From an uncultured delta proteobacterium (GTDB lineage Bacteria > Desulfobacterota > Desulfobacteria > Desulfobacterales > Desulfosarcinaceae), in contig CAVQUU010000029.1 in assembly GCA_963716825.1 (NCBI GenBank), forward strand, positions 56,767-88,766: DNA of 32,000 bases, written 5' to 3'. This document shows, in pieces, positions 1 to 27,747 of this stretch. The notes beneath the pieces are model-generated. The model had not been told where the DNA came from and did no database searches. It was given only the letters and a program-made list of their open reading frames with translations. Each line of letters starts with the position of its first letter. Positions within the stretch are counted from its first letter, which is position 1. A program made the translations under genes and the position numbers.

Positions 1-472
1 CCCCCCGCCAAGGCGAGGAACACATAGTTAGCCAGACGCAGCCGTTCGCGCCAAATCAGCAGGCTGGCCATGGTGCTGAGCGCGATCACCCCGAGTTCCA
101 GGGTGGGAAAAGCCACTGAACCCGGCAGATGAGCCAGGGCGCGAATCCAGAAATAAGTGGCCAGAATATTCGTCGTCCCCGAGACGACGCCCAGAAAAGG
201 CAGGGCCTGCCGGGTCGGGGCCCTTTGAAGAGCTGGAATCCGGTGAGAATCAGGGCGGTGCCGAAAATAATAACCATAAAGCCGTTGGGATCGGCCAGAG
301 GCGCCAGTTCAGCCTGCACCTTGAACGTGAAGTCGGTTATCCCGTAGACGGCAAAAAGCAGCATCCCCCAGATCGTTCCCTTCCACGTCGCCTTTCCGGC
401 CGTCCCGAAATGCAACGGTTCCTTACAGGCCAGAGGCAGACAGCAAAAGGCCAAAAATGCGATTCCACTCAT
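1..472 (-). pseudogene. Polytopic membrane protein (DMT/EamA-like), N-terminal part. The reading frame is broken at a G/C homopolymer and the gene continues past the window start
   Basis: ORF 86..472 begins with hydrophobic helices (MSGIAFLAFCCLPLA, GFMVIIFGTALILTGFQLF) but becomes an R/P/W-rich tail after FQLFKG. Another frame on the same strand reads RQALPFLGVVSGTTNILATYFWIRALAHLPGSVAFPTLELGVIALSTMASLLIWRERLRLANYVFLALAG from about nt 215 down to nt 1 without a stop. The frame switch coincides with the GGGGCCC run at 217..223. Confidence 0.5.
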
Positions 473-762
473 GCCTTCCCACCATGATCCAGGCTGACAA
501 TAATTTTTGCCATCAAAGAATACTATGATTTGCCGGCATAGTCCAATCCCGTCTGGGGATCCTCAGAATTGATGCTCAAGGTAAACCCGGTTTTGGCTGT
601 TTTCATTCATTGTGATGTCCTGCCTGCCCAATACTGGCGCCGGAAAGAAAAATAAGGCCGCTACACATGCAGTCACCATTGTGTATTTAAGCGGTTCCGG
701 CAACTCCGGGGCCAACGGTTAGGCCCTTTCCATTGTGGGTCAAATCAGGTAAGAACCATTGC

Positions 763-1620
763 ATGCTTCGACAGACCTTTTTACATATCCCGGGCATCGG
801 ACCCAAAACCGAACAGGGCTTCTGGGCCGCCGGTGTGGGTGATTGGAATGCCTTTTTCGACGATGTAACCCTGAAGCTGTCAGCATCCAAACGGGCGGCC
901 ATTGCCGATGTGTTGACCGAATCCAGACGCCAGCTGGATGGCCGGAACCCGGATTATTTCGCCCGGCGGTTGCCCGCCAGCCAGCAGTGGCGGCTGTTCA
1001 GCGAGTTCCGTGGCCAGACCGCCTACCTGGATATCGAAACCACGGGGCTGGAGGCAGACTGCACGATTTCCACCATCGCCGTGTACGACGGATCGACGAT
1101 GATCACCTACGTGAATGGACAAAACCTGGACGACTTCATCGACGACATCCGCCGCTTCAAGCTTCTGGTAACCTACAACGGCAAGTGCTTCGACGTCCCG
1201 GTGATCGAGCGGTATTTGGGCATGAAACTGGACCAGGCCCATATCGACCTGCGCTACGTGCTGGCCGGCCTTGGTTTAAAGGGTGGGCTCAAGCGTTGCG
1301 AGGCGCAGTTGGGCATGGGCCGCGGCGATCTCGAGGACATTGACGGGCTGTTCGCGGTGGTGCTCTGGAAGGCTTATCTGCGCAACCGTGACCAACAGGC
1401 CCTGGAGACCCTGCTCGCCTACAACCTGCAGGACGCCATCAATCTGGAGTCGCTGATGGTCACCGCCTTCAACCTGAACGTTCGGCAGACCCCCTTTGAT
1501 CGCCGATGTCGGCTTGCCGTGCCGCCAACACCCCAAAACCCGATTCCCGCCCACCGGCACACCATCGAGCGCTACCGCAATGAAGTGGCTTTTATCCGTT
1601 CCCTGCAGCCGCAGTGGTAA
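763..1620 (+). CDS. RNase H-fold (DEDD-like) predicted exonuclease, YprB/COG3359-like, with N-terminal helix-hairpin-helix
   Basis: Motifs IPGIGPKTEQ (HhH-like), YLDIETTGL, LVTYNGKCFDVPV, HIDLRY and AYNLQDA. ATG at 763 is preferred over the non-ATG start of the track ORF at 733. Confidence 0.75.
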   Translation: MLRQTFLHIPGIGPKTEQGFWAAGVGDWNAFFDDVTLKLSASKRAAIADVLTESRRQLDGRNPDYFARRLPASQQWRLFSEFRGQTAYLDIETTGLEADCTISTIAVYDGSTMITYVNGQNLDDFIDDIRRFKLLVTYNGKCFDVPVIERYLGMKLDQAHIDLRYVLAGLGLKGGLKRCEAQLGMGRGDLEDIDGLFAVVLWKAYLRNRDQQALETLLAYNLQDAINLESLMVTAFNLNVRQTPFDRRCRLAVPPTPQNPIPAHRHTIERYRNEVAFIRSLQPQW

Positions 1621-1623
1621 AAA

Positions 1624-1650
1624 AAACGCCGAACCGTTGGTCCGGCGTTT
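1624..1650. terminator. Bidirectional intrinsic-terminator-like hairpin between convergent genes
   Basis: AAACGCCGAACC (1624..1635) pairs with GGTCCGGCGTTT (1639..1650): 12-bp stem with one mismatch and a 3-nt loop. An A-run lies upstream and a T-run downstream. It sits between gene ends at 1620 (+) and 1682 (-). Confidence 0.6.
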
Positions 1651-1681
1651 ATATCGATATCGAGGCAATTGGCTTGCTCTG

Positions 1682-2773
1682 TTATCCTTCCAGGAACGGG
1701 TAGTCATTGTACCCCTTTTCATCACCGCCATAAAAGGTGTCCTGATCCGGATCATTGAGCGGGGCGTTGCGGCGATAGCGTTCCACCAGGTCCGGATTGG
1801 CCAGGTAGGGGACCCCGAAGGCCACCAGGTCTGCCGCATTCTCGGCGATGGCCTTTTCAGCGGCGTCCCTGCCGTAGCCGCCGTTGATCATCAGGGTACC
1901 TTTATAGATCTTGCGAAGTTCGGCGGCCACGGGCTCAACGCCCTCCTGGCTCTTAAACGTGGGATGGCCGGGCAGCGGTTCGATGAGGTGCAGGTAGGCC
2001 AGGGGAATGTCGTTCAGCGCCGCCACCAGTTGGCTGTAAAGGGCCAGGGGGTCCGAGTCGTGCATGTCGTTGAAGATCCCCCGCGGCGAGATGCGAAATC
2101 CGACCCGGCCAGGCCCCCACGCCTCAACCACGGCAGACACCACCTCAAGGGCAAAGCGCATCCGATTGGGGATGTCGCCGCCGTAGGCATCGTTCCGACG
2201 GTTGGACCCGTCTTTCAAGAACTGCTCGATGAGATAGCCGTTGGCACCGTGGATTTCCACGCCATCGAATCCGGCACTTTTTGCCAGCCTTGCCGCGTGG
2301 GTAAACTGGTCCACAAGGGATGGAATCTCTTCGGTAGCAATCGCCCGGGGCATGGTGGGCGGTTCGAAACCGTTGGGCGTGAACACCATGGTCTCCGCCT
2401 TGACGGCCGATGGCGCGATGGGATCGCTGCCGTCCGGTTGAAGCAAGGTGTGCGATACCCGGCCGGTGTGCCACAGCTGGCTGAAAATGCGGCCGCCTTT
2501 TGCGTGAACCGCATCGGTTACCGTCTGCCACCCGCGGGCCTGATCTTCGGTGTAAATGCCAGGCGTAAACACATACCCGGTGGCCTTGTCCGAAACCTGG
2601 GTGGCTTCGGTGATCAGCAGCCCGGCCGTGGCGCGCTGGGTGTAATGGGTGACCGCCATGGGCGTGGGCACCCCGTTTTCATCGTTCCGATTGCGGGTCA
2701 TGGGGGCCATAACCATGCGGTTGGGCAGGTTCAGCGCGCCCAGGGTGTAGGGGGAAAACAGTGTATCAGTCAT
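1682..2773 (-). CDS. Old Yellow Enzyme family NADH:flavin oxidoreductase / alkene (N-ethylmaleimide-type) reductase
   Basis: Full-length 363 aa with OYE hallmarks: MVMAPMTRNR, LITEATQVS, FSQLWHTGRVSH, VEIHGANGYLIEQFL, NRRNDAYGGDIPNRMRF. SD-like AAAGGA upstream of the ATG. Confidence 0.9.
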   Translation of the reverse strand: MTDTLFSPYTLGALNLPNRMVMAPMTRNRNDENGVPTPMAVTHYTQRATAGLLITEATQVSDKATGYVFTPGIYTEDQARGWQTVTDAVHAKGGRIFSQLWHTGRVSHTLLQPDGSDPIAPSAVKAETMVFTPNGFEPPTMPRAIATEEIPSLVDQFTHAARLAKSAGFDGVEIHGANGYLIEQFLKDGSNRRNDAYGGDIPNRMRFALEVVSAVVEAWGPGRVGFRISPRGIFNDMHDSDPLALYSQLVAALNDIPLAYLHLIEPLPGHPTFKSQEGVEPVAAELRKIYKGTLMINGGYGRDAAEKAIAENAADLVAFGVPYLANPDLVERYRRNAPLNDPDQDTFYGGDEKGYNDYPFLEG

Positions 2774-2815
2774 AATGATCGTCCTTTCAATGGGTCAATT
2801 ATTAATCCGATCTGA

Positions 2816-2830
2816 ATGACCGGTCGTCTT
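2816..2830. promoter_or_regulatory. Candidate TetR operator upstream of the OYE gene (ATGACCGGTCGTCTT, core palindrome GACCGGTC)
   Basis: Exact 15-nt copy of the sequence at 3444..3458. Located in the 70-nt spacer between the TetR stop (2844) and the OYE start (2773). Confidence 0.5.
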
Positions 2831-2843
2831 GAATTTTCTTAAG

Positions 2844-3431
2844 TTATTGTAACAACACTGCCAGCATATCCAAAAAGGCGTTCAGCGGCTGAATGTTACG
2901 GCTGGATTTCATGCGCAGGATCGCCCCTTCCCAGCTGTTGAAAATCGCTTCGGCCAGCCGGTCCGGATCCGCTTCCCGATTGACCTCTCCTGCATCCTGG
3001 GCGCTACGGATACAGCGGGCCAGGGCCGAAGTGTAGATGCGGAACAGGTACTCCGCCTTTTCGGCAACGGCTGCATTGGTATCGGCCAGTTCCTGGCACA
3101 GGTTGCCCACGAAACAACCGGTGGTGTAATTGCGTGATGCTTCATAAACGGCCGCCATGTCCGCGTAGCTGTCGATGATCCGCTGCTGGGGAGACGGGGA
3201 ACCGGTCGTCAGCGCGGTTTCGAATCCTGCGATGTGGTCATGGCTGGTGAACTCCATGGCCGCCAGGGCGAAATCTTCCTTGCTTTTGAAATAGTTATAG
3301 AAAGAGCCCTTGGGCACACCAGCGGCGTCCACGATCTTTTGGATGCCGGTGCCGTGATATCCCTTTCGCAGCATCAACGCCGCACCTGCGTCGAGAATGG
3401 CCGCACGCTTATCGTCTTTGGTCGTCTTCAT
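2844..3431 (-). CDS. TetR/AcrR family transcriptional regulator (NemR-like position upstream of the OYE gene)
   Basis: N-terminal TetR HTH: AAILDAGAALMLRKGYHGTGIQKIVDAAGVPKGSFYNYFKSKEDF. 195 aa, co-directional with and immediately upstream of the OYE gene. Confidence 0.9.
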   Translation of the reverse strand: MKTTKDDKRAAILDAGAALMLRKGYHGTGIQKIVDAAGVPKGSFYNYFKSKEDFALAAMEFTSHDHIAGFETALTTGSPSPQQRIIDSYADMAAVYEASRNYTTGCFVGNLCQELADTNAAVAEKAEYLFRIYTSALARCIRSAQDAGEVNREADPDRLAEAIFNSWEGAILRMKSSRNIQPLNAFLDMLAVLLQ

Positions 3432-3438
3432 ACGGGTT

Positions 3439-3466
3439 AAAATATGACCGGTCGTCTTTTTGTCAA
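3439..3466 (-). promoter_or_regulatory. Candidate sigma70-type promoter of the TetR gene with the operator in its spacer; possibly a leaderless transcript
   Basis: Minus-strand reading TTGACA-AAAAGACGACCGGTCA-TATTTT (16-nt spacer). The -10 element ends 7 nt before the ATG at 3431 and no SD is present. The spacer contains the repeated ATGACCGGTCGTCTT unit (3444..3458). Confidence 0.5.
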
Positions 3467-3600
3467 GCCAGAGGGTTTAGGTCGTCGAACAGAAGTCGGA
3501 AGATTGAAGAGCCGGATGGCAATCGCGGCTGCAAGCCGATCCTTCAGGCCCTTGATCTATCCTTAGCTAGCATTTATGCAATACATTGAAAGGGAAATAA

Positions 3601-4356
3601 TTGGTTATCAAATATGATTCGTTAGAAACTAAAAGTTTGGCAAGACAAATCGCTGATAATCTTCAAACTGCTATATTTAACGGTGATGTAGGAGCGGATG
3701 AGCGTTTGCCTTCCGAATATGAACTTGCCGAGAAATTTGATGTATCGCGACCTACCATTCGAGAAGCTTTGAAAATTTTAGCTGCAAGGAATCTAACTCG
3801 TTCCCAAAGGGGGCCCAGCGGTGGTACTTTTGTTAAAATACCAACTCAAGAAGACGTCCGGGAAATAATTTCGAATACAACGACCATGTTGATAAATTCA
3901 GGTGAACTGGATTTTCAATCTTTTCATGAGGCACGATATGAATTTGAGACATTTTGTTGTCGCTTGGCTGCCGAGAGGCGAAAACCGTTACACTTAGAAG
4001 AAATGAAGGTTGAGTTGGAGATTCAAAAGGATCCCACCACCAATCATGTAGAATTTTGTCATTCTGATGTTCGGTTTCATCGAATTATTGTGGATGCAAC
4101 TGATAATCCCCTTATTAGGATGATCATGGACCCGGTATTCGATGCATGACAGCCGATATTCAACATGGCCATTTATCGCTACCGCAACCGTGATAGAATT
4201 TTTTTCCAACATAAACATATATACGACGCGTTGAAGAATCACGAGGCGGACAAAGCAGTTAAAACCATGACAGAACAATTGGATGATCTGCATGAACACA
4301 TGCTTAAAGCCCACGAGTGGAGAAAATCCCGGGATAAGAACTTATACAATAAATAA
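3601..4356 (+). pseudogene. GntR family (FadR/FCD subfamily) regulator interrupted by an in-frame TGA
   Basis: ORFs 3601..4149 and 4165..4356 are in the same frame. The first has the GntR wHTH (LPSEYELAEKFDVSRPTIREALKILAARNL) and the start of an FCD domain. The second carries the FCD C-terminus (QHKHIYDALKNHEADKAVKTMTEQL). A single TGA at 4147..4149 separates them. Low-GC composition. Confidence 0.75.
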
Positions 4357-4460
4357 AACCACACATTCGGTTTCATCATGTTTAGTTGCGGGACAATAAC
4401 TTGTCGCACAACATTCTATTAGATTCGTTATGGCTATCAACTCATTGAAATATAATCTCA

Positions 4461-4682
4461 ATGCTTATCCTCTTCAGTCTGTATCTTGTTTTAAAGGAAC
4501 GTGGTCTGATGGTTCTCACCGGTTGTGCCCATGCAGGGGTCATTAATACTGTGGATTATGCCCGGCATTTGACCGGCATTAATCGTGTGTACGCAGTTAT
4601 GGGCGGATTCCATCTGTCCGGAGAACCATTCCAAGGAGCACGTGAACCCACGCTTTAGGCACTTAGAAAAATTGACCCTTGA
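4461..4682 (+). pseudogene. Decayed remnant of an MBL-fold metallo-hydrolase (COG1237-like) gene
   Basis: GLMVLTGCAHAGVINTVDYARHLTGINRVYAVMGGFHLSG matches only the C-terminal third of MBL-fold proteins. The same frame continues EPTL-stop-ALRKIDP-stop, i.e. several in-frame stops, and no N-terminal HxHxDH part is present. Confidence 0.6.
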
Positions 4683-4907
4683 CCCGCCCAACCAATCCAT
4701 TCTATCTATAACTCATAGGAATTGTGTGCTGTTCCTCCCTCCTATTTAGACATCATCGCGAATATAGTGAAACTCCTAGTTCAACACCAGCCGCTGATGC
4801 GATACGGATCCTGATTAATTTTCGCCTACCAATGAATTATTCGACAATTGCGGAGGAAAAGTCACACATTCCTAAAACATATGCCATTTATCACCAGGAG
4901 ATTGAAG

Positions 4908-7900
4908 ATGAAATGCTCAGAATGTAATTTCGATAATCCTGAGGGCATGAAATTTTGTGGTGAATGCGGTGGAAAATTAGCAACTAATTGTCCAGAATGC
5001 AATTTCAAGAATCCTCCAGATTTTAAGTTCTGTGGTAATTGCGGTTATGAATTGAAAGACGTCAAAACACAATCATCTTTAAAGAGAACACCTTTTGAAG
5101 ATAAATTGGAAAAGCTAAAAAAGTATCTTCCGGAGGGACTTATAAATAAAATTCTATCGCAAAAAAATAAAATTGTTGGTGAACGTAAACAAGTAACAGT
5201 TATGTTCTGTGACATGGCTGGTTTTACATCTCTGATAGACAAACTTGGCCCAGAAAAAGGATACTCTATAATGGATCAGGTTTACGAAATATTGATCCAT
5301 AAAGTTCAGGATTATGACGGCACGGTAAATGAGATGACCGGAGATGGAATAATGGCTCTTTTTGGTGCACCAATTGCGATAGAAGATGCACCACAGCGAG
5401 CTATTAAATCGAGTTTAGCCATTCACCGTGAGATGGCTAAATTTAGCGATAAGTTGATTGGTGAAGGAATTTCACCAATCAAAATGAGAGCAGGCATAAA
5501 CACTGGTACGGTTGTTGTTGGTGCGTTAGGAAACGATCTTCGAGTAGAATTCAAAGCTGTAGGTGATACAGTAAATATAGCTTCCAGAATTGAAGGTCAC
5601 GCTGAACCGGGGACTACATTTGTTTCAGCGGAAACTTTTAAATTAACTGAAGGATTATTTCGTTTTGAAGCCCTGGGTGAAAAAAAAATAAAAGGCAAAA
5701 AAGAACCAATTAACGTCTTCCAGGTAATTGCACCAAGTAGCAGCCGAACAAGATTTGATGTTAGTGCTGAGAGAGGGCTATCTCAATTTGTTGGGAGAAC
5801 AAGAGAGATAGAAATTTTGCATGAAGGTTTTGAAAGGGTAAAAGAAGGAAATGGACAAGCATTTTCTATTGTATCTGAAGCTGGTATTGGAAAATCCCGG
5901 TTGTTATATGAATTCAGAAAGAAAATATCAAGCACAGACGTCATTTTTTTAGAAGGAAGGTGTCTATCTTACAGTCATGGTATATCGTATCATCCTATCA
6001 TTGATATTTTAAAAGCGAATTTGGATATTCGTGAAGAGGATACGGATTCCGTAATTCGTGAAAAGGTTAAAAAAGGGTTAAGCATATTAGAGATAGATGA
6101 AACATTTGCACTGCCTTATATTTTAGAACTTTTCTCTGTGAAAGATAGTGGATTCAATGAAATCAAAATGAGCCCGGATGCCACAAAAGAAAGGGTAATG
6201 GAAATAATCAAGTTATTTACCCTTAAAGGATCAAAGATAAGACCGGTAATAACAGCTTATGAAGACCTTCATTGGTCGGATAAAAGTTCAGAAGAAGTAT
6301 TGAAATATGTTTTAGACAGCATTCCAGCATCAAGAGTAATGATGATATTTACATATCGACCAGAATTTGTGCACATATGGGGAAGTAAATCTTACCATAA
6401 CCAGCTCAACCTTAACAGACTTTCCAACCGAGAAAGTCTTGCGATTGTTAAAAACCAGCTTGAAACTAAAGAAATTGATCGCAAACTCGAAGAGTTGATT
6501 TTAGAAAAAACCGAAGGCGTTCCTTACTATATTGAGGAATTCGTTAAATCTCTTTATGAATCTAATATGGTCGTGAAAAATCATAAAATGTACCGCTTGG
6601 CTCAAAATATCGAAGAGGTCTCAATCCCTTCGACGATTCAAGGTGTAATCATGGCCAGGATAGACCGATTACCAGAATTGGCGAAAGAGTTACTTCAAAC
6701 TGGCTCGGTGATCGAAAGAGAGTTTACATATGAATTAATTAAGCATGTTTGTGAATTAGAAGAAAAAGAATTATTATCAGCTTTGTCGGTTCTAAAAGAG
6801 TCAGAGCTTTTGTATGAAAGGGGTATTTATCCTGAATCGACCTACATTTTTAAACATGCCCTGACAAGGGATGTTGTCTATGATTCAATACTTACTGAAA
6901 AAAGAAAAATATTGCATGAAAATATCGGTTACAGTGTCGAAGAATTGTATTCCAGTCGCTTAGAACAAAAATTTGAGGTTCTGGCTCATCATTTTGGCAA
7001 TGCCGAAAGTTGGGAAAAAGCTGTTCATTATGCAAAACTTGCCGCTGAAAAGGCCCATAAGCTCAGTCAATTTCATCAAGCTATCACTCTCTACGATCAA
7101 GCTGCCGGTTGGATTTTAAACCTTCCAGAAAGCCAATCCCAAGAAGAAAGCCTTCTTGATATTCAATTGGAACTTTGCTGGAGCAATATTGGATTAGGGC
7201 AATTTGGGAAAGTTGAGGAGGTTGCTTCAAAGGCAGAAACGATTGCTAAACACTTGGATGACAATATTCGGCTTGGCATCGCATACCTTGGCTTAGGAAC
7301 CGCCTGTGTATACCGAGGAAAATTCGAGAAAACAGAACACTACACATTATTGGCCATCAGGCATTTGGAAAATACAACTGAGGAACGATCATTAGCAATT
7401 GCTAACCTTGTGCTTGGAGCATGCTATATCGGGCAAGGTCTTTGGTTAAAATCTGAACCATGCTTTTCAAAAACCGTCAACATCTATGAGAAATTAGGCT
7501 CAAAAACCGAATATGTGATGGGTTGGAATGCCCTCCCCTACACAATCGTGTGTGGACAATTGGGATACAATTTCGCTGTTATGGGTAGAGTCACCGAAGG
7601 CAAGGAGCTGATCGAAAGGGGATTCTCATCTGAGTTAGAACAGGTCAGCAACCTCACCACCAAAATGGCCTTTTGCTCTTGGCAAGGCCTTTTCATTTCA
7701 CTGGTCGGAGAAGATTATTTTGAAGCGGCAAATAAAATTGACAATCTGGTAAGTCTTGCTGAGCGGTCAGGATCACCTTTCATGATGCTTGCATTTAACG
7801 CTGCTAAGGCCAACATGATGCTGGGTATCGAGGAATATGAAATGGTGCTGAAGTCATGCAACAACGCACTTGAGGCCATCGAAGGCACACCAATTCGAAC

Positions 7901-8312
7901 CGGCCATGTAACCAATATACATTATGACCTGGTTTTAGCAAATTTGAAGTTAGGTAATCATGATCATGCAAGGCAGCATTACGAAAAAGGTAAGTCTTTG
8001 GTTAATTTGGCACCAAACTGGTGGGGGCCTCGTTTTCTTTTCCTCAAGGGCTTGTTACTTGGAAATGAACCCTCTCCTGGATATGAATTAATTGAAAAGT
8101 CATTTAGAAAATCAATTGAAGATGACGAAAGTGTCGGAGCCACTGTACCGGCTGCCCAGACACGCTTCTATCTTGCAAAGATGTTTTTTTGTAAAGGTGA
8201 TTCTGACCGTGCCCATAAAATGATGACAAATCTCCGAAATTGTTTCGAGAAATATGAGATTCCAGTTTGGCGTCAAAAATGCGATCATGAACTTGAGCCA
8301 TATCACTTTTAA
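4908..8312 (+). CDS. Multidomain signalling protein: double zinc ribbon + class III adenylate/guanylate cyclase domain + AAA_16/STAND-type NTPase + C-terminal TPR-like repeats
   Basis: Start at ATG 4908, preceded by AGGAG at 4895..4899.
- Zinc ribbon: CSECNFDNPEGMKFCGECG and CPECNFKNPPDFKFCGNCG.
- Cyclase motifs: VTVMFCDMAGFT, GDGIMALFG, RAGINTG, GDTVNIASRIEG.
- NTPase: FVGRTREIEIL, Walker A SEAGIGKSRL, Walker B-like ITAYEDLHWSD.
- Long helical repeat tail to the stop at 8312, with no C-terminal HTH recognised. Confidence 0.9.
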   Translation: MKCSECNFDNPEGMKFCGECGGKLATNCPECNFKNPPDFKFCGNCGYELKDVKTQSSLKRTPFEDKLEKLKKYLPEGLINKILSQKNKIVGERKQVTVMFCDMAGFTSLIDKLGPEKGYSIMDQVYEILIHKVQDYDGTVNEMTGDGIMALFGAPIAIEDAPQRAIKSSLAIHREMAKFSDKLIGEGISPIKMRAGINTGTVVVGALGNDLRVEFKAVGDTVNIASRIEGHAEPGTTFVSAETFKLTEGLFRFEALGEKKIKGKKEPINVFQVIAPSSSRTRFDVSAERGLSQFVGRTREIEILHEGFERVKEGNGQAFSIVSEAGIGKSRLLYEFRKKISSTDVIFLEGRCLSYSHGISYHPIIDILKANLDIREEDTDSVIREKVKKGLSILEIDETFALPYILELFSVKDSGFNEIKMSPDATKERVMEIIKLFTLKGSKIRPVITAYEDLHWSDKSSEEVLKYVLDSIPASRVMMIFTYRPEFVHIWGSKSYHNQLNLNRLSNRESLAIVKNQLETKEIDRKLEELILEKTEGVPYYIEEFVKSLYESNMVVKNHKMYRLAQNIEEVSIPSTIQGVIMARIDRLPELAKELLQTGSVIEREFTYELIKHVCELEEKELLSALSVLKESELLYERGIYPESTYIFKHALTRDVVYDSILTEKRKILHENIGYSVEELYSSRLEQKFEVLAHHFGNAESWEKAVHYAKLAAEKAHKLSQFHQAITLYDQAAGWILNLPESQSQEESLLDIQLELCWSNIGLGQFGKVEEVASKAETIAKHLDDNIRLGIAYLGLGTACVYRGKFEKTEHYTLLAIRHLENTTEERSLAIANLVLGACYIGQGLWLKSEPCFSKTVNIYEKLGSKTEYVMGWNALPYTIVCGQLGYNFAVMGRVTEGKELIERGFSSELEQVSNLTTKMAFCSWQGLFISLVGEDYFEAANKIDNLVSLAERSGSPFMMLAFNAAKANMMLGIEEYEMVLKSCNNALEAIEGTPIRTGHVTNIHYDLVLANLKLGNHDHARQHYEKGKSLVNLAPNWWGPRFLFLKGLLLGNEPSPGYELIEKSFRKSIEDDESVGATVPAAQTRFYLAKMFFCKGDSDRAHKMMTNLRNCFEKYEIPVWRQKCDHELEPYHF

Positions 8313-8652
8313 TATGTTTTTAAAGCATCACCCTTTGCAAAGTATCAAATTTAGCAGTGCATCTACATCTGGTGGTCAGACGACATTTTGGGTGGGTGGT
8401 GATTACACACCAGTCAATGAATATATCTGATAAATCGGTTGCGTGGTGATCTATTGAGATCACTATGGTTCTGTGGCCCGCAACGATACCGGTGATCTTC
8501 ATTAGGTATCTGAATAACTTATATTATTGATTTAATCGCAGCAACGAAAAAGCTCACCGGCGGCAATGGAGCACAGCAGCAAAAAAGTTAGAAGAAGAAT
8601 TAATTTAGATAGAGTTACTTCATGCCAACTTTTCGACTCATTCCGCCACAAC

Positions 8653-15707: not shown

Positions 15708-16862
15708 TCAAGGACCGCGTTTGTCTTTCAATATATTGTTGGAGATCACCACCCGCTGAATTTCCGAGGTGCCTTCGTAGATGGTGAACACGCGGGCGTC
15801 CCGGTAGAATCGCTCCACCGGATAGTCGGTGGTAAAACCATATCCGCCGTGCATCTGCAGGGCTCTGGCCGTAACCCGGTTGACCATTTCGGACGCGTAC
15901 AGCTTGGCCATGGAAGCCTGGATGGTGAAACGTTCCTTGCGGTCCTTCATGGCGGCGGCACTCAGGGTGAGTTGCCGGGCCGCCTCGATCTCGGTGGCCA
16001 TGTCGGCGATGATCCAGCGCAGTCCCTGGAATTTGGAGATCTTCTGACCGAACTGGTCCCGCTGCTTGGCGTATTTCACGGCCGCATCGAAGGCCGCCTG
16101 GGCCACCCCGAGGCTCTGGGCGGCAATGCCGATGCGCCCGCCGTCCAGCCCCTTCATGACGATCTTGAACCCTTCACCCGCTTTTCCCAGCATATCCGAT
16201 GCCGGCACCCGGCACTCTTCGAAATGCAGGTCCGTGGTGTCCGAGGCGCGCAGCCCCATCTTGTCTTCCATGTTGCCAACGACGAGTCCGGGGTTGTCCT
16301 TGGTGACGATGAAGGTGCTGATTCCCTTGTGGCGGGCGTCCGGATCGGTCTTGGCGGTGACGATGACCAGACCGCAGTTTTGGCCGGTGGTGATAAAGCG
16401 TTTGGTGCCGTTGATGATGTAGTGGTCCCCGTCTTTCACCGCCGTGGTCTGCTGGCTTACGGGGTCGGAACCGGCCTCGGGCTCGGTCAGGGCAAAGGCG
16501 CCGATATATTTGCCCATGGCCAGATCCTTGAGATAATGCTGCTTTTGGTCTTCGCTGCCGAAATTCAGGATGCTTTCGCAGACGATGGAATTGTGCACCG
16601 ACATGACCACCGCCGTCGAGGCGCAGGAATAGGCGATTTCGGAAAGGGCCAGGACGTAGCCAATCGTGTCCGAATCCGATCCTTCGTAATCGAAGGGGAC
16701 CATCATTCCCAGGAGACCCAACTCGGCCATCTGTTTGAGGTTTTTGGCGGGAAATTCCTTGGTCTTGTCGCGCTCCGCTGCAGTTTCAGCAACCACCTTG
16801 CGGGAGAACTCGCGAACCATGGACTGAATCATCAGTTGTTCATCGGTCAGCTTGAATGACAT
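15708..16862 (-). CDS. Acyl-CoA dehydrogenase (short/branched-chain, butyryl-CoA dehydrogenase-like)
   Basis: 384 aa with full-length ACAD pattern: GAFALTEPEAGSD, ITNG-type (FITTGQ), QMHGGYGFTTDYPVERFYRDARVFTIYEGTSEIQ. Confidence 0.93.
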   Translation of the reverse strand: MSFKLTDEQLMIQSMVREFSRKVVAETAAERDKTKEFPAKNLKQMAELGLLGMMVPFDYEGSDSDTIGYVLALSEIAYSCASTAVVMSVHNSIVCESILNFGSEDQKQHYLKDLAMGKYIGAFALTEPEAGSDPVSQQTTAVKDGDHYIINGTKRFITTGQNCGLVIVTAKTDPDARHKGISTFIVTKDNPGLVVGNMEDKMGLRASDTTDLHFEECRVPASDMLGKAGEGFKIVMKGLDGGRIGIAAQSLGVAQAAFDAAVKYAKQRDQFGQKISKFQGLRWIIADMATEIEAARQLTLSAAAMKDRKERFTIQASMAKLYASEMVNRVTARALQMHGGYGFTTDYPVERFYRDARVFTIYEGTSEIQRVVISNNILKDKRGP

Positions 16863-16873
16863 GGTGTGGTCCT

Positions 16874-17425
16874 CTACGGGTTGTAAATCACGACAATCAG
16901 TTCGGCATCTGTTTCTCCAGTGTTTTTCAAACGGTGCTGAATACCGGAATTGAAATGGAGGGAGTCGCCGGCGCCAAGGGCGTTTACGTGTTCTCCGACC
17001 ACCACCTCGATGGTGCCGTCGAGCACGTACACGAACTCTTCCCCTTCGTGATTGTAACTGACGCCTTCATGGGTTTTCATGGCATCGATCTTCACCCGGA
17101 ACGCCTTGAGGTGTTTGTTCTCGGCCCCCGGCGTGAGGGTGGTGTAGGCATAGCTCGACGTGCGTTTGGTGTATGCCTTGATGCGGTCCTGCATGCGGCC
17201 ATCGTCTTCCTTGAGCAGATCCCCGGAGTCGATCTCAAGGGCCCGGGAAATCTGAAGCAGGGAACCCACCGGCGGCGTGACTTTACCGGTTTCGACTTTC
17301 TTCAGGAAATCGATCGAAAACCCGGTGTCGTTGGCCAGGGTCTCGTAGGACATCTTTTTGTCGGTCCGCGCCTTTTTGATCTTCTTGCCCACAGGGGTGA
17401 GACGGGCGTTTTTTCTGGGGGGCAT
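16874..17425 (-). CDS. XRE-family HTH + cupin domain transcriptional regulator
   Basis: HTH: MSYETLANDTGFSIDFLKKVETGKVTPPVGSLLQISRAL. C-terminal cupin: GEEFVYVLDGTIEVVVGEHVNALGAGDSLHFNSGIQHRLKN. SD AAGGAGG. Confidence 0.85.
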   Translation of the reverse strand: MPPRKNARLTPVGKKIKKARTDKKMSYETLANDTGFSIDFLKKVETGKVTPPVGSLLQISRALEIDSGDLLKEDDGRMQDRIKAYTKRTSSYAYTTLTPGAENKHLKAFRVKIDAMKTHEGVSYNHEGEEFVYVLDGTIEVVVGEHVNALGAGDSLHFNSGIQHRLKNTGETDAELIVVIYNP

Positions 17426-17437
17426 GGTACCTCCTTG

Positions 17438-18286
17438 TTAGTATTCGTAAAACCCTCTGCCGGTTTTCCGGCCCAGCCAGCCGGTTTCGACATACTTTCT
17501 CAGCAACGGGCAGGGCCGGTACTTGGAATCCTTGAATCCGTTGCACAGGGTCTCCATGATGGCCAGGCAGGTGTCCAGGCCGATCAGATCCGCCAGGGCC
17601 AGTGGCCCCATGGGATGGTTCATGCCCAGTCGCATGACCGTATCGATGTCTTCGCGGGTGCCCACGCCATGGTACAGGGCAAACACCGCCTCATTGATCA
17701 TGGGCAATAGGATGCGGTTGGCGATAAAGCCGGGAAAGTCGTTGGCCAAGGCCGGCGTCTTGCCGAATTTCACCGACAGGTCCCAGGTGGTCTGGAAAGT
17801 CTCATCGGAGGTGGCCAGGCCGCGGATGACCTCCACGAGCTTCATCACCGGCACCGGGTTCATGAAGTGCATGCCGATGACCTTGTCCGGACGTCCGGTC
17901 TGGGCGGCGATCCGGCCGATGGGAATGGAGGAGGTGTTGGTGGACAGGATCACACCGGGCCTGCAGATCTCGTCCAGATCCTTGAAAATCTTGAACTTGA
18001 GGGTCTCGTTTTCAGTGGCCGCCTCCACCACGAAATCCGCTTCAGCCATGTCCTTGAGATCGGCGGTGATCTTGATGCGGCCCATGATCGCATCTTTGTC
18101 TTCAGCCGAAAGTCTGCCCTTATCCACGTTTTTACCAAGGATCTTGGTAATATTGGCCAGCCCCTTTTCCGCAAATTCGATCTTGATGTCGCTCATGATG
18201 ACATTCAAGCCAGCGGTCGCCGCCACCTGTGCAATGCCGTTGCCCATCTGACCGGCGCCGATGACGCCGAAGGTGTTGATGTCCAT
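17438..18286 (-). CDS. hbd: 3-hydroxybutyryl-CoA (3-hydroxyacyl-CoA) dehydrogenase
   Basis: Rossmann motif GVIGAGQMGNGIAQV, plus STNTSSIPI, GMHFMNPVPVMKLVE and PGFIANRILLPMINEA. Confidence 0.93.
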   Translation of the reverse strand: MDINTFGVIGAGQMGNGIAQVAATAGLNVIMSDIKIEFAEKGLANITKILGKNVDKGRLSAEDKDAIMGRIKITADLKDMAEADFVVEAATENETLKFKIFKDLDEICRPGVILSTNTSSIPIGRIAAQTGRPDKVIGMHFMNPVPVMKLVEVIRGLATSDETFQTTWDLSVKFGKTPALANDFPGFIANRILLPMINEAVFALYHGVGTREDIDTVMRLGMNHPMGPLALADLIGLDTCLAIMETLCNGFKDSKYRPCPLLRKYVETGWLGRKTGRGFYEY

Positions 18287-18436
18287 TGTTTATCTCCCTC
18301 TATTAGGTGTTTAGCCGTTTAGACTGAAGGCTATTAGCCTTGAAATGAATACCATTGCTTTACTTCAAAAGGCTGAGCCAAAGGCGAATCCATCTTGCTA
18401 TCAGCTATCAGCCACGAGCTATCAGCGATGATCGCC

Positions 18437-18583
18437 GTGTCCGTTGAGAGATGGTAGCTTGCGGTTCAGATCAAGGCCGCAGGGTTTTGGAAACCGCAGG
18501 CGTAGCAGTGTGCTACGTCGAGGATTTCCAAAACGGCGAGAACGCCGAGCTGGGCCGCAAGATGCCATCTTATGGGCGGACAC
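18437..18583 (-). repeat. Copy B of the ~145-nt nested-palindrome intergenic element
   Basis: - Arms: GTGTCCG...AGATGG (18437..18454) / CCATCT...CGGACAC (18565..18583).
- Stem 2: CTTGCGGTTCAGATC (18458..18472) / GAGCTGGGCCGCAAG (18547..18561).
- Stem 3: GTTTTGGAAA (18484..18493) / TTTCCAAAAC (18525..18534).
- Inner hairpin: CGTAGCA-GTG-TGCTACG (18501..18517).
- Small hairpin: CGGCG-AGAA-CGCCG (18534..18547). Confidence 0.8.
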
Positions 18584-19758
18584 TATCGTTTGACTACCAT
18601 CGCCACCGCCTCCCCCCCCCCCAGGCAAAGCGAAACCAGTCCGGTTTTTTTGTCCCGGCGGATCATCTCGTGGAGCAGGGTCACGAGTACCCGGCAGCCA
18701 CTGGCGCCGATGGGGTGTCCCAAGGCCACACTGCCGCCGTTGACGTTGGTTTTTTCGGCGAGAAGCCCCAGCTCATTCATCGCGGAGACGGTGGATCCGG
18801 AAAAGGCTTCGTTGACCTCGAACAGGTCCACGTCATCGATGCCGATACCTTCCTTCTTCAGGCATTTGGGAATGGCCCAGATGGGCGCCACCAGCACGTA
18901 TTTCATGTCAATGCCGAAGGAGGCCTGGGCGCCGATGCTGGCCATGATCGTGCATCCCAATGCCTCGGCCTTTTCCCGGGACATGACCACCACGGCGGCC
19001 GCGCCGTCGCTGATGATGGAGGCATTGCCGGCAGTGCCGACCCCGTCTTTTTTAAAGGCCGGCTTCATCATAGCCAGGTCTTCATAGGAGGTTTCACGGG
19101 CGCATTCATCCTTGGCGAAGCGGGTGGGTTCGCCTTTGCGCCGGGGAATGGAGACGGGCACGATTTCGGCGTCGAAACGACCGCTGTTGATTGAATCGAG
19201 TGCCCGGCGATAGGATTCGGCGGCATAGCGGTCCTGATCTTCCCGGCTGACGTGGTAGCGCTCGGAACACAGTTCGTTGGACATGCCCATGTGAAAATCG
19301 TTGACGATGTCCCACAGGCCGTCGTGAATCATTGAATCCTGGAGCTGGCCCGGTCCCATGCGGTAACCGAAGCGTGCCTTTTCCAGGTAGTAGGGTGCCA
19401 TGCTCATGTTCTCCATGCCGCCGGCGACCACCACCTCGGCATCGCCCAGTTGGATGGCCTGGGCGGCCAGCATGACGGTTTTCAGGGCGGAACCGCAGAC
19501 CTTGTTGACGGTTATCGCCTCGGCCTCCCAGGGCAGACCGGCCTTGACCGCTACTTGCTTGGCCGGGTTCTGGCCGTAACCGCAGGGCAGCACCTGGCCC
19601 ATGAGAACCTCGTTTACCTCGGTTTTCTCGATGCCGGCGCGCCGGATGGCTTCTGCAACAACGATGGCCCCCAGGTCCGTGGCGCCGATGCCGGCCAGCG
19701 ATCCGTTGAAACTGCCCAGCGGTGTTCTCACCGCGCTGACAATGACTGCTTCGTTCAT
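18583..19758 (-). CDS. Acetyl-CoA C-acetyltransferase (thiolase II)
   Basis: Start at ATG 19756..19758 (MNEAVIVSAVRTPLGSF), preceded by AGGAG. Active-site NKVCGSALK, GHPIGASGCR and CLGGGEA motifs. The track ORF start at 19818 adds 20 non-homologous residues. Confidence 0.93.
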   Translation of the reverse strand: MNEAVIVSAVRTPLGSFNGSLAGIGATDLGAIVVAEAIRRAGIEKTEVNEVLMGQVLPCGYGQNPAKQVAVKAGLPWEAEAITVNKVCGSALKTVMLAAQAIQLGDAEVVVAGGMENMSMAPYYLEKARFGYRMGPGQLQDSMIHDGLWDIVNDFHMGMSNELCSERYHVSREDQDRYAAESYRRALDSINSGRFDAEIVPVSIPRRKGEPTRFAKDECARETSYEDLAMMKPAFKKDGVGTAGNASIISDGAAAVVVMSREKAEALGCTIMASIGAQASFGIDMKYVLVAPIWAIPKCLKKEGIGIDDVDLFEVNEAFSGSTVSAMNELGLLAEKTNVNGGSVALGHPIGASGCRVLVTLLHEMIRRDKKTGLVSLCLGGGEAVAMVVKR

Positions 19759-19833
19759 GGAATATCTCCTGTCGTTGAATCTATACCAGACCAATGAACG
19801 TACCTGGGCCTGATGCATTATAGTTGATGCGAG

Positions 19834-19926
19834 TTTTAAGTGTTCAAGTGGTTAAGTTTTAAGCAACGGATCAGGAGCCGATTGTAGGTTACAAATCGAC
19901 AGCATACCTTCGCTTAACACTTAAAA
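19834..19926. repeat. 11-bp perfect inverted repeat (TTTTAAGTGTT / AACACTTAAAA) with reiterated AAGTGTT-type half sites, in the icmF-thiolase spacer
   Basis: Arms at 19834..19844 and 19916..19926. AGTTTTAAG is repeated at 19832..19840 and 19855..19863. A further AACACT lies at about 19936..19941. Confidence 0.5.
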
Positions 19927-19948
19927 TTTTATACCTAACACTTTTTTA

Positions 19949-22900: not shown

Positions 22901-23237
22901 CCTTGATCTCTTCGGGAACGATGACGCCGCCGCCGCCGCCGAACACCTTGATGTGTCCGGCACCACCGTCTTTGAGCAGATCCACCATGTATTTAAAAAA
23001 CTCCAGGTGGCCGCCCTGGTAGCTTGAAATGGCGATGCCCTGGGCGTCCTCTTCGATGGCGGCGTCGACGATTTCCTTCACCGATCGGTTGTGGCCCAGA
23101 TGGATCACCTCGACGCCGGTGCTCTGCAGAATGCGTCTGAAGATATTGATGGAGGCATCGTGGCCGTCGAAAAGGGATGTCGCCGTGACGACCCGGACGT
23201 TGTTCCTGGGCCGGTATACCTGGATGTCATCGTTCAT
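19949..23237 (-). pseudogene. icmF: IcmF-type fused isobutyryl-CoA mutase (B12-binding domain + MeaB-like G-protein + mutase barrel) with one frameshift
   Basis: - ORF 21555..23237 carries the B12-binding domain (SLFDGHDASINIF, GIAISSYQGGH) and the P-loop GTPase (GITGTGGAGKSSL).
- ORF 19949..21730 carries the mutase barrel ([31 protein letters not shown]).
- The frames overlap by 176 nt.
- Sensible sequence switches at REIRAPL / [13 protein letters not shown], i.e. at the GGGG run 21626..21629 (CCCC on the coding strand).
- The combined length of about 1095 aa fits IcmF. Confidence 0.85.
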
Positions 23238-26420: not shown

Positions 26421-26442
26421 CCAATCGTAAAGGAAACCCGCT

Positions 26443-27705: not shown

Positions 27706-27747
27706 GATGGTCGGACGTCCGCGATCGGTCAATGGCAAGGAGACGAC

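Follow-up and report, generated by a model that had tools for sequence, protein, structure and literature searches.

The gene at positions 4908-8312 (+) of the window (the whole 32,000-nt stretch analysed, from an uncultured member of the Desulfosarcinaceae) raises the question of what is done by a protein that joins zinc ribbons, a nucleotidyl cyclase, a STAND NTPase and TPR repeats in one chain; the first-pass annotation had proposed a single-gene sensor-effector system, possibly serving defence. The analysis argues, with fairly good confidence, for a cytoplasmic single-polypeptide signalling enzyme in which a class III cyclase is placed under a MalT/AAA_16-type STAND switch and which belongs to ordinary physiology, not to phage defence. 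The gene is real and intact. Indeed, an uninterrupted ORF spans 4848-8312 (+), its likely start is the ATG at 4908, an AGGAGA sequence (4896-4901) lies 6 nt upstream of this ATG, and the protein read from it has 1134 aa. Pfam identifies a DZR domain (aa 3-46, 1.4e-10), a Guanylate_cyc domain (PF00211; aa 93-268, 6.8e-24, 84.9 bits for a gathering cut-off of 21.9), an AAA_16 domain (aa 293-480, 1.9e-20, 74.4 bits for a cut-off of 32.6), and TPR_12 together with other TPR matches (aa 715-1030). An AlphaFold2 model obtained with 100 diverse homologs as input has a pLDDT of 92.3 and a pTM of 0.81. The following parts are recognised:

4908-8312 (+): coding sequence of the DZR-cyclase-STAND-TPR protein, including the stop codon (intact ORF, Pfam domains, dN/dS)
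4908-5057 (+): double zinc ribbon, aa 1-50, with eight cysteines, C3, C6, C17, C20, C28, C31, C42 and C45 (Pfam DZR)
5091-5162 (+): two helices, aa 62-85, carrying the conserved motif YLPxGLxxKIL (alignment with the Cya2 fusion 6FHT)
5175-5738 (+): class III nucleotidyl cyclase catalytic domain, aa 90-277 (Pfam; match to 2W01 by sequence and fold)
5784-6587 (+): STAND nucleotide-binding domain (AAA_16), aa 293-560 (Pfam; fold matches to 6MFV and Apaf-1)
6588-6893 (+): helical/winged-helix part of the STAND module, aa 561-662, with the motif FKHALTRDVVY containing H650 (secondary structure of the model)
6894-8309 (+): TPR-like helical solenoid, aa 663-1134, presumed sensor (model and TPR Pfam matches)

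The order of domains given in the first-pass annotation (zinc ribbons, cyclase, AAA_16/STAND, TPR) agrees with both Pfam and the model, and its GIGKS and EDLHWSD motifs were located within EAGIGKSRL (aa 324-332) and TAYEDLHWSD (aa 449-458). The repeats that it described are also present, but their length was underestimated at about 400 aa, as the modelled solenoid covers about 470 aa. The claimed absence of a DNA-binding output domain stands: no HTH is found in the 1134-aa protein by Pfam, no DNA-binding fold is detected by Pfam, in the AlphaFold2 model or by Foldseek, and in the model the TPR solenoid reaches the very end of the chain. Since the modelled helical solenoid runs unbroken from about aa 663 to the C-terminus, no HTH or effector domain is hidden there. 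All domains are under purifying selection, with a dN/dS of about 0.1; in comparisons with the other 95%-identical copies, values are 0.08-0.13 overall, 0.07-0.12 for the cyclase and 0.09-0.29 for the TPR region.

The complete class III catalytic domain announced earlier is confirmed by the presence of the metal ligands D102 and D146 and of the transition-state residues N223 and R227. These four residues are invariant in 31 members of the clade and at 45 loci; across the superfamily, both Asp and the Arg are conserved in at least 90% of members, and about one fifth have another residue, mostly His, in place of the Asn. The cyclase is the best-conserved domain of the protein, with a mean identity of 78% within the clade. 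Its best PDB sequence match is the Cya2 guanylyl cyclase 2W01 (1.8e-29), which also gives the lowest rmsd among the fold matches (Foldseek, TM 0.91, rmsd 1.5 Å), and the modelled domain reaches TM scores of 0.85-0.91 with Cya2, CyaB and CyaC, or of 0.85-0.93 when RhGC is included.

The two base-specifying positions are occupied by E142 and K216, and neither the Lys/Asp nor the Lys/Thr pair of adenylate cyclases is found. This E/K pair does not vary among the 45 loci and characterises one cluster of the superfamily, where 100 members include 50 with Q/T, 19 with E/K, 7 with K/T and 1 with K/D. E142 aligns with E488 of Cya2. Glu occupies the first base-specifying position in guanylate cyclases, and the second is classically C, S, T, H, A or G, a list without Lys (PMC4215837); furthermore, the E488K change turns Cya2 from a guanylate into an adenylate cyclase (PMC5995499). 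What is new here is that the substrate-specifying E142/K216 pair, invariant in the clade, is matched by PfPucC, a proven cGMP synthase according to a 2026 preprint, which reads guanine via Glu118 and Lys195 at the same two positions, these contacts being derived from an AlphaFold3 model and not from a substrate-bound crystal structure (bioRxiv 10.64898/2026.08.12.744502). With Glu142 and Lys216 at both base-reading positions, the residues suggest that the cyclic nucleotide product of the clade is probably cGMP rather than cAMP. As a correction to the earlier description of the cyclase, the substrate pair is E142/K216 and not the K/D of adenylate cyclases.

The likeness to Cya2 of Synechocystis (2W01) extends to the first base-specifying residue, Glu in both, and to a transducer-like helix before the domain. 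Cya2 is regulated by a membrane CHASE2 sensor, whereas the window protein would be regulated by its STAND module; the second specifying residue is Gly in Cya2 and Lys here, and Ser stands here where Cya2 has a Tyr that raises its guanylate cyclase activity. The helices at aa 62-85 align to the FGRYLTDQVVATLL segment of the Cya2 fusion 6FHT, in which the FGRY motif is the conserved CTE motif (PMC5995499). Y73, L74, P75, G77, K81, I82 and L83 of the motif YLPxGLxxKIL are invariant, and in sequence the helices resemble a transducer element ahead of class III cyclase domains. Upstream of them, all clade members have the eight cysteines of the zinc ribbons, which are also kept in 86 of 100 superfamily members.

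The structural comparisons fit the earlier idea that a STAND switch, with its repeat sensor at the C-terminus, governs an N-terminal enzymatic output. Indeed, the top Foldseek match of the non-cyclase remainder is the STAND+TPR protein 6MFV (E 3e-13), with Apaf-1 at 7e-9; no PDB relative of the NTPase region was found by sequence profile. All five motif classes of a MalT/AAA_16-type STAND protein are present, followed by a repeat-type sensor: we take G326xGKS330 (Walker A), E452-D453 (Walker B), R484 (sensor-I-like), G537-V-P539 (GxP) and H650 to be the motif residues of this protein. The motif residues are invariant or nearly so across 100 members, down to 29% identity, and F648, H650, V656 and Y658 are nearly invariant in these members. 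The solenoid is modelled with a pLDDT mostly of 90-98 and is helical to the C-terminus. Identity in the TPR region falls from 57-65% within the clade to only 17-22% in the superfamily as a whole, which would be expected of paralog clades that each respond to a ligand of their own. MalT/PH0952-type proteins (6MFV) and Avs proteins share the P-loop domain, the helical/winged-helix part and the C-terminal TPR sensor with the window protein, but the output is a cyclase here and an HTH in MalT; Avs proteins carry a nuclease, protease, SIR2 or TIR domain as output.

The gene belongs to a very large, known but uncharacterised family of bacterial signalling enzymes, as its four domains occur in the same order and with colinear full-length homology in the DZR-cyclase-AAA_16-TPR family. 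Clustering at 50% identity gives about 24,900 clusters that match at E<=1e-30, and most of the best 150 of them begin at query residue 1-3 and thus include the zinc ribbons. The protein had been called an orphan, which holds for the partner gene, none being conserved, but not for the protein family. Desulfobacterales, Cupriavidus, Burkholderia and rhizobia share the four-domain architecture and often have more than one copy of it or copies in tandem, and homologs are present in 722 plasmid or chromid records, the best full-length ones in Cupriavidus and Burkholderia (where they are annotated as 'adenylate/guanylate cyclase domain-containing protein'). Genomes carry several paralogs, some in tandem, that differ in their base-specifying pairs, a pattern typical of an expanded signalling family. 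In Cupriavidus basilensis, WP_150984813.1 has the same four Pfam domains in order and is colinear over its full length at 30% identity; neither protein has a conserved partner gene, and both occur in several copies per replicon. However, WP_150984813.1 has the canonical adenylate-cyclase K/D pair and a His in place of Asn223, whereas the clade of the window protein has an invariant E/K. Among eukaryotic proteins, the full-length mammalian soluble adenylyl cyclase ADCY10 (sACfl) likewise has class III catalytic domains followed by a predicted STAND P-loop domain, but it has two tandem catalytic domains acting as a pseudo-heterodimer, lacks zinc ribbons and is regulated by bicarbonate and calcium. 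A literature search found no biochemically characterised member of the DZR-cyclase-AAA_16-TPR architecture.

The location of the gene in a foreign-composition island beside gene debris, as first described, is supported by the GC profile, by a strain-variable islet and by damaged neighbours. The GC content is 35-43% over 4001-9000 and 55-62% in the flanks; that of the gene is 38.6%, compared with 57.9% for the rest of the window without 3401-9000. The sister contig L046 matches the window over 1-3569 and 9080-20171 at 89-92% nucleotide identity and contains 5.1 kb of unrelated low-GC DNA between these blocks. Three features are delimited by comparison with this contig and with those carrying other copies:

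3570-9079 (unstranded): low-GC islet that varies between strains, flanked by the backbone genes TetR (2844-3431) and Nudix (9119-9664) (comparison with L046, GC profile)
4668-4907 (+): upstream region travelling with the gene and holding the Shine-Dalgarno sequence AGGAGA at 4896-4901 (91-93% nucleotide identity to L001/L045 and L043/L044)
8313-8463 (+): downstream region travelling with the gene, its 3' end at a hairpin (homology limits against L001/L045 and L043/L044)

The islet contains the cyclase cassette, a GntR/FCD gene with an in-frame stop, a fragment of an MBL-fold gene and an ABM gene. Upstream homology begins sharply at 4668/4669 in all comparisons, and a possible promoter (TTGACC, 18 nt, TATCTA) may be read near 4680-4715. 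Downstream, homology stops at 8461-8462 for L001/L045, within the hairpin GTGATCT-ATTG-AGATCAC (7-bp stem, 8446-8463), and at 8377 for L043/L044. The segment 8359-8460 is also present, inverted, at another place in L044. A further new observation is that three genomic contexts unrelated to one another share the gene at 95% nucleotide identity, together with about 240 bp on its upstream side and 65-150 bp on its downstream side. The present copy reached a Desulfosarcina-like genome by recent horizontal transfer, with a lower-GC relative as the donor.

Could the protein nevertheless be a regulator of the MalT/LAL type? In that case the cyclase would act mainly as a nucleotide-binding or dimerisation module, and the double zinc ribbon would stand in for the missing LuxR HTH as the output, with nucleic acid or a partner protein as its target. 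The closest characterised architectures, LAL/MalT and the Rv0386-type cyclase-ATPase-LuxR proteins, are transcription factors. Rv0386, Rv1358 and Rv2488c of Mycobacterium tuberculosis likewise begin with a class III cyclase and continue with a P-loop STAND ATPase, and the base-specifying residues of Rv0386 are non-canonical too (Q/N). The first-pass annotation had pointed to this likeness without the LuxR HTH, and rightly so, as neither Pfam nor the model reveals an HTH: the mycobacterial proteins end in a LuxR HTH and the window protein in TPR repeats, and its double zinc ribbon is absent from the domains listed for them. The conservation of the eight zinc-ribbon cysteines, as strong as that of the catalytic residues, and the wide variation of the base-specifying residues over the superfamily would also suit such a regulator. 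However, invariance of the four catalytic residues in the clade, conservation of both Asp and the Arg over the superfamily, the place of the cyclase as the best-conserved domain with the dN/dS given above, and the lack of a DNA-binding fold by Pfam or in the model make this explanation unlikely.

An anti-phage sensor-effector, in which the TPR/STAND part senses a phage component (Avs-like sensing) and a cyclic nucleotide alarm activates a cell-killing effector encoded elsewhere (Pycsar/Pucsar-like signalling), is very unlikely. It would agree with the strain-variable islet of foreign composition and with the movement of the gene between no fewer than three contexts (95% identity), where IS elements or integrase/resolvase fragments are often its neighbours. 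Furthermore, cGMP made by an E/K-type cyclase is a documented anti-phage signal, and some cyclase-STAND fusions, of the NACHT and AP-ATPase types, are predicted to be immune, so that by architecture alone defence would be conceivable (bioRxiv 10.64898/2026.08.12.744502). The STAND domain of the window protein is, however, of the AAA_16/MalT type. PADLOC gives only PycC models for the protein, over the cyclase domain, and no Avs or other STAND defence model (E<=0.1); these matches are generic, because any class III cyclase would give them, and neither version of the islet has a PADLOC match. As single sequences, the physiological cyclases Cya2 (105 bits) and CyaB (94 bits) score much higher with the cyclase domain than a Pycsar cytidylate cyclase does (PycC structure 8JSF, 20.5 bits); PycC HMMs reach up to 67 bits. 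Instead of the N-terminal effectors of Avs proteins, zinc ribbons and a cyclase are found, and the neighbours are not defence genes. In a survey of 150 neighbouring ORFs at about 20 distinct homolog loci, no defence family recurs; neighbourhoods are variable and mostly metabolic, and the commonest Pfams (HMGL-like, aldo/keto reductase, radical SAM, ABC transporter, TPR, NUDIX and paralogous cyclases) each occur in at most 4 ORFs. The annotation had named a consistent lack of defence-island association as an argument against its own proposal, and this is essentially what these loci show. It had also noted that no cognate cNMP-activated effector is adjacent, which proves correct: no cNMP-binding effector is conserved beside the gene, and no CNBD-TIR or CNBD-TM gene lies beside the cyclase in the window or at about 24 homolog loci. 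In one context a stand-alone 145-aa cNMP-binding protein is encoded 2 kb upstream, but outside the shared block. Matches in a phage collection are restricted to the cyclase domain (aa 70-241), none covering more than 15% of the query. PucC of Pucsar resembles the window protein in the Glu/Lys at the two Watson-Crick-edge base-reading positions; the Pucsar cyclases, however, occur on long branches at loci with CNBD-TIR or CNBD-TM effectors (bioRxiv 10.64898/2026.08.12.744502), whereas the window protein, a STAND fusion of 1134 aa, evolves slowly and has no effector linked to it. Its strong purifying selection and high conservation, which extend to the sensor, are the opposite of the long branches that define immune cyclase clades, and the several paralogs per genome, some in tandem, also argue against defence.

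Finally, a regulatory part of a TOMM (thiazole/oxazole-modified microcin) or other natural-product cluster is hardly credible: NCBIfam TIGR03903 ('TOMM system kinase/cyclase fusion protein') aligns with aa 88-874 at 353 bits and has a homologous cyclase-STAND-TPR core, but this score is half of the curated cut-off (705.75), the match begins at model position 280, past the kinase part, no Pfam kinase domain is present and TOMM biosynthetic genes are missing from the window and from all of about 24 homolog loci, so that membership of TIGR03903 was rejected.

For the signalling enzyme favoured here, the following mechanism may be proposed. The C-terminal TPR solenoid would bind a ligand, either a small molecule or a protein, and thereby free the STAND module from an ADP-locked state; ATP binding to this module would then drive oligomerisation, which would join the N-terminal cyclase domains into a head-to-tail dimer. 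Class III cyclases need such a dimer to form their active sites. The cyclase would make a 3',5'-cyclic nucleotide, probably cGMP, that could act on cNMP-binding proteins encoded elsewhere in the genome, and the double zinc ribbon with the transducer-like helix may provide a second regulatory or dimerisation input. In mammalian soluble adenylyl cyclase, which has a predicted STAND domain, no tested nucleotide altered activity through that domain (PMC12802110), and STAND control of a cyclase is therefore without experimental precedent.

In summary, it is tentatively suggested that the clade with E142/K216, which is widespread in sulfate-reducing Desulfobacterales, is made up of guanylate cyclases gated by their STAND domains, which would be activated by ligand-triggered, ATP-dependent oligomerisation and whose gene would spread horizontally as a self-contained module of about 3.8 kb. 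If true, this would add a large, previously unrecognised branch to bacterial cGMP signalling and would offer a tractable bacterial model of STAND-cyclase control, of interest for mammalian soluble adenylyl cyclase as well.

The cyclase gene occupies a single long ORF, and its product carries four kinds of Pfam domain in the following order:

4848-8312 (+), single long ORF at the cyclase-gene locus
4908 (+), probable start ATG, with AGGAGA at 4896-4901, six nt upstream; product of 1134 aa
aa 3-46, double zinc ribbon (DZR) (Pfam)
aa 93-268, class III cyclase domain (Pfam, 6.8e-24)
aa 293-480, AAA_16 P-loop domain (Pfam, 1.9e-20)
aa 715-1030, TPR matches (Pfam)

The final AlphaFold2 model, computed from 100 diverse family members (pLDDT 92.3, pTM 0.81), replaced an earlier one computed from 31 close homologs (pLDDT 67.7), in which the cyclase and NTPase parts were poor and with which Foldseek returned generic TPR matches only. 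In the final model, the zinc ribbons are followed by a flexible linker, two helices, the alpha/beta domain of the cyclase, a P-loop domain with helical and winged-helix parts, and a helical solenoid that is continuous from about aa 663 through the final residue; no hidden HTH or other output domain is seen at the C-terminus. The best Foldseek match in the PDB is the STAND+TPR protein 6MFV (E 3e-13), followed by the cyclases Cya2, CyaB and CyaC (TM 0.85-0.91), and Apaf-1 was also matched; a sequence profile of the NTPase region found no relatives among PDB sequences. Pfam, AlphaFold2 and Foldseek thus reproduce the domain order described in the first-pass annotation, and the GIGKS and EDLHWSD motifs that it quoted are both found in the protein, so that this observation is confirmed in full. 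Scans of the window for tRNA and Rfam families gave no matches, and promoter and terminator consensus counts around the cyclase gene were no higher than in shuffled sequence.

Residue conservation was followed in two alignments, one of 31 members of the clade of close relatives and one of 100 members of the superfamily, down to 29% identity. The 31 clade members share, without exception, both metal ligands (D102, D146), both transition-state residues (N223, R227), the eight cysteines of the zinc ribbons, the Walker A residues G326, G328, K329 and S330 and the Walker B residues E452 and D453. Across the 100 members, G326, G328, K329, R484, E452, D453, W456, G537, P539, F648 and H650 are invariant or nearly so, a set that we take to represent the STAND Walker A, Walker B, sensor-I-like Arg, GxP motif and winged-helix His.

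The base-reading pair is Glu142/Lys216, as opposed to the Lys/Asp of adenylate cyclases. E142 aligns with E488 of Cya2, and K216 with the Gly of the Cya2 E-G pair; the E488K substitution turns Cya2 from a guanylate into an adenylate cyclase (PMC5995499), and in guanylate cyclases the first base position is Glu while the second is variable (PMC4215837). Furthermore, the anti-phage cyclase PfPucC makes cGMP, and its guanine recognition has been modelled via Glu118 and Lys195 (bioRxiv 10.64898/2026.08.12.744502), exactly the same two positions as E142 and K216. The signature D-E-D-K-N-R is kept in 45 loci of Desulfobacterales and relatives, next to which paralogs carry Q/T, K/T or K/G pairs instead. 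Among the 100 superfamily members, 50 have a Q/T pair, 19 E/K, seven K/T and one K/D, and average-linkage clustering of the superfamily placed all E/K sequences in one cluster. From this Glu/Lys evidence (Cya2, PfPucC, the 45 loci, the single cluster) we may thus reasonably infer, short of proof, that the product is cGMP. Whether the protein is a STAND-gated guanylate cyclase is a biochemical question worth asking.

Class III cyclases are active solely as dimers, with the active sites at the interface, and STAND proteins are closed, ADP-bound monomers that become ATP-bound oligomers once a ligand occupies the sensor. By analogy with these proteins, ligand binding to the TPR solenoid would allow the NTPase to swap ADP for ATP and to oligomerise, which would bring the N-terminal cyclase domains together and start cyclic nucleotide production; cNMP-binding proteins whose genes lie elsewhere in the genome would act as receptors. 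Conservation of the TPR region is good within the clade (57-65% identity); over the whole superfamily, in contrast, this region diverges more than any other (17-22%, versus 39-47% for the remaining domains), a pattern that fits paralog clades reading different ligands. A conserved YLPxGLxxKIL helix preceding the cyclase aligns with a segment of the Cya2 fusion containing FGRY, a conserved transducer (CTE) motif (PMC5995499), and because of this alignment the zinc-ribbon domain is suggested to be a second regulatory input.

The protein had been described as an orphan, a label that does not hold. Indeed, more than 7,900 proteins reached E<=1e-10 in a word-indexed search; the top 120 share 54-96% identity, most of them being full-length (~1135 aa) with the same domains, and nearly all source-named proteins among these 120 come from Desulfobacterales metagenome bins. 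With an exhaustive search of 50%-identity representatives, 24,909 clusters passed E<=1e-30; among the 150 best, the alignment mostly begins at query residue 1-3 and thus takes in the zinc ribbons. Homologs also occur in 722 plasmid/chromid records (at most six places per record) of Rhizobium, Sinorhizobium, Cupriavidus, Burkholderia and others; among the matches listed, the best are those of Cupriavidus and Burkholderia, which align from query residue 1. In particular, WP_150984813.1 of Cupriavidus basilensis, named "adenylate/guanylate cyclase domain-containing protein" in RefSeq, shares the four Pfam domains and can be aligned colinearly from end to end at 30% identity. Genomes may hold multiple copies (two on one complete chromosome, three in one bin), and paralogous DZR-cyclase-STAND-TPR genes form arrays, in tandem or nearby, at three homolog loci (L006 2697-9444; L010 1598-10810; L007 2507-3220 and 10184-10903). 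Within these arrays the base-specifying pairs differ, E/K standing beside Q/T, so that adjacent paralogs of a single genome may differ in the nucleotide made or in the ligand read.

The products of the window's backbone genes exceed 90% identity to Desulfosarcina/Desulfobacteraceae proteins, and window 1-3569 and 9080-20171 align at 89-92% nucleotide identity with a 625-kb contig (L046) from a sister genome. In this contig, the space between the TetR and Nudix genes is taken up by unrelated DNA of low GC content (5.1 kb), which makes window 3570-9079 an islet that varies between strains; the comparison, together with the GC profile, bears out the earlier proposal of a foreign-composition island. 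The GC content of the cyclase gene (38.6%) is below that of every flank in its three contexts (58% for the window outside 3401-9000, and 44-48% in the other two), and that of distant family members lies within 1-4 points of their own flanks. The sole part of the islet that recurs elsewhere is 4668-8461, that is, the gene with ~240 bp upstream and ~150 bp downstream, which is found at ~95% nucleotide identity in two further, mutually unrelated contexts: in the first (L001/L045), PAS and cNMP-binding genes lie upstream and an integrase fragment or IS66 downstream; in the second (L043/L044), HU genes lie downstream in both contigs and a resolvase gene is present in L044. The left edge of the shared block is at 4668/4669 in all comparisons, and the right edge varies (8377 with L043/L044, 8461-8462 with L001/L045). 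Searches for terminal inverted repeats and target-site duplications around the 3.8-kb block and the islet gave short repeats at chance level only, so no transposon- or integron-like structure is claimed. The three copies differ by a dS of ~0.12-0.13 with a dN/dS of 0.08-0.13, no domain exceeding 0.35 and the TPR region lying at 0.09-0.29; the gene has therefore been kept by selection in every context. A decaying cargo or pseudogene is rejected (intact ORF, dN/dS ~0.1), as is a phage-borne origin, the matches in the phage collection being confined to the cyclase domain (aa 70-241). This 95%-identical cassette, found in three contexts and lacking recognisable mobile-element ends, is a clean case of recent single-gene transfer within an order.

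Other features were noted in and around the islet. A GntR/FCD-family regulator gene (3601-4340, +) has a single in-frame TGA at 4147-4149, past which the FCD domain stays in frame as far as a TAA near 4340; either this islet gene is a pseudogene or the TGA is a sequencing error. The 3' fragment of an MBL-fold hydrolase ORF (…LVLTGCAHAGVINTVDYARHLTGINRVYAVMGGFHLSG…) at ~4440-4660 (+), 8 nt left of the block edge at 4668, looks like a gene remnant. Two small repeated intergenic elements are shared with L044: 102 nt just 3' of the cyclase gene (8359-8460) recur inverted at 89% identity (L044 9241-9342), 5.4 kb downstream of the L044 gene copy, and 54 nt of the promoter-like upstream region (4671-4724) have an 81%-identical counterpart ahead of a Usp gene (L044 11039-11092). 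In L001 (5885-6322 and 8144-9154) and L045 (7620-8057 and 8123-9154), the stand-alone 145-aa cNMP-binding protein and the PAS protein are encoded just upstream of the gene copy in divergent transcription; the cNMP-binding gene, which is outside the shared block and missing from the other contexts, encodes a possible local receptor.

The first-pass annotation had put forward, as a hypothesis, a single-gene sensor-effector system of possible defence type, and an action of the gene in phage defence now appears highly improbable. PADLOC matched the protein to PycC (Pycsar cyclase) models only, over aa 79-252, models that any class III cyclase matches, and to no Avs or other STAND defence model; neither islet version (window and L046) gave a PADLOC match. 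Against solved structures, the cyclase domain scored 105 bits with Cya2, 94 bits with CyaB and 20.5 bits with a Pycsar cytidylate cyclase. Among 150 ORFs within 6 kb of homologs at about 20 distinct loci, PADLOC families were each represented by three at most, the PycC matches being the paralogous cyclases themselves, and the commonest Pfam families (HMGL-like, aldo/keto reductase, radical SAM, TPR repeats, ABC transporter, B12-binding and NUDIX) were each present in at most four, together with paralogous cyclase-AAA_16 genes; pre-annotated homolog neighbourhoods agree with this survey. An immune role has been predicted for fusions of a cyclase with a NACHT or AP-ATPase STAND domain, and immune cyclase clades are recognised by long branches and conflict-gene neighbourhoods (bioRxiv 10.64898/2026.08.12.744502). 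In the present family, the STAND domain is of the AAA_16/MalT type, the branches are short and the neighbourhoods are metabolic; the family therefore essentially shows the lack of defence-island association that had been named beforehand as refuting a defence role. The earlier interpretation is partly supported: it holds for the domain architecture, for the logic of sensor, switch and output and for the location in an island, but not for a defence role. The gene is best annotated as an ordinary signalling gene, and prioritising it as a defence candidate is unwarranted. About 6 kb from one homolog, L039 (17123-18352) encodes an MBL-fold protein matching the Pfam families Anti-Pycsar_Apyc1, a cyclic-nucleotide-degrading nuclease fold, and generic Lactamase_B; it occurs at this locus only and is probably a generic MBL hydrolase.

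Several backbone genes of the window also deserve mention. In brief, these include: an IcmF-like fused B12-dependent mutase/MeaB GTPase gene split by a frameshift, possibly a long-read assembly error, into overlapping ORFs (19949-21730 and 21555-23237, -), which is single (1095 aa) in L046; an acyl-CoA dehydrogenase gene, intact here and similarly split in the near-identical contig L042; a pyridine nucleotide-disulphide oxidoreductase (29102-31090, -) with a DEP domain at its N-terminus (Pfam 1.6e-15), of a kind known chiefly from signalling proteins of eukaryotes; a chromate-resistance-like series of ChrB-like regulator, MFS transporter and ChrA chromate transporter (25437-29064, +); and a conserved protein of ~500 aa between HD-domain and SurE genes (10568-12163, -), with no Pfam or PADLOC match, also encoded in L046 (8281-9786).

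The nearest relatives of the protein are uncharacterised proteobacterial proteins of the same architecture. Of the proteins that have been studied, the mycobacterial Rv0386-type cyclase-ATPase-LuxR regulators, whose HTH is missing here, are among the closest; Cya2 has the cyclase domain in common but a different regulation, full-length mammalian soluble adenylyl cyclase has a likewise predicted STAND domain, and the TOMM kinase/cyclase fusion (TIGR03903) shares the cyclase-STAND-TPR core. Membership in the latter family is rejected (TIGR03903 score under the cut-off, kinase missing). No published characterisation of a DZR-cyclase-STAND-TPR protein was found in the literature on cyclase-STAND-TPR proteins, DZR-cyclases and Desulfobacter guanylate cyclases; the kind is therefore counted as known, widely annotated and functionally unstudied, and what is modestly new is the E/K pair pointing to cGMP and the horizontal spread over three contexts. 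The protein represents a very large family (~25,000 clusters at 50% identity), routinely annotated and never characterised, whose members join a nucleotide cyclase to a STAND ATPase switch. To our knowledge, few bacterial guanylate cyclases have been confirmed; if the Glu/Lys clade makes cGMP, an extensive cGMP signalling layer would exist in Desulfobacterales, and the family could offer a simple model for the STAND-controlled activation of a cyclase, a question also posed by human soluble adenylyl cyclase.
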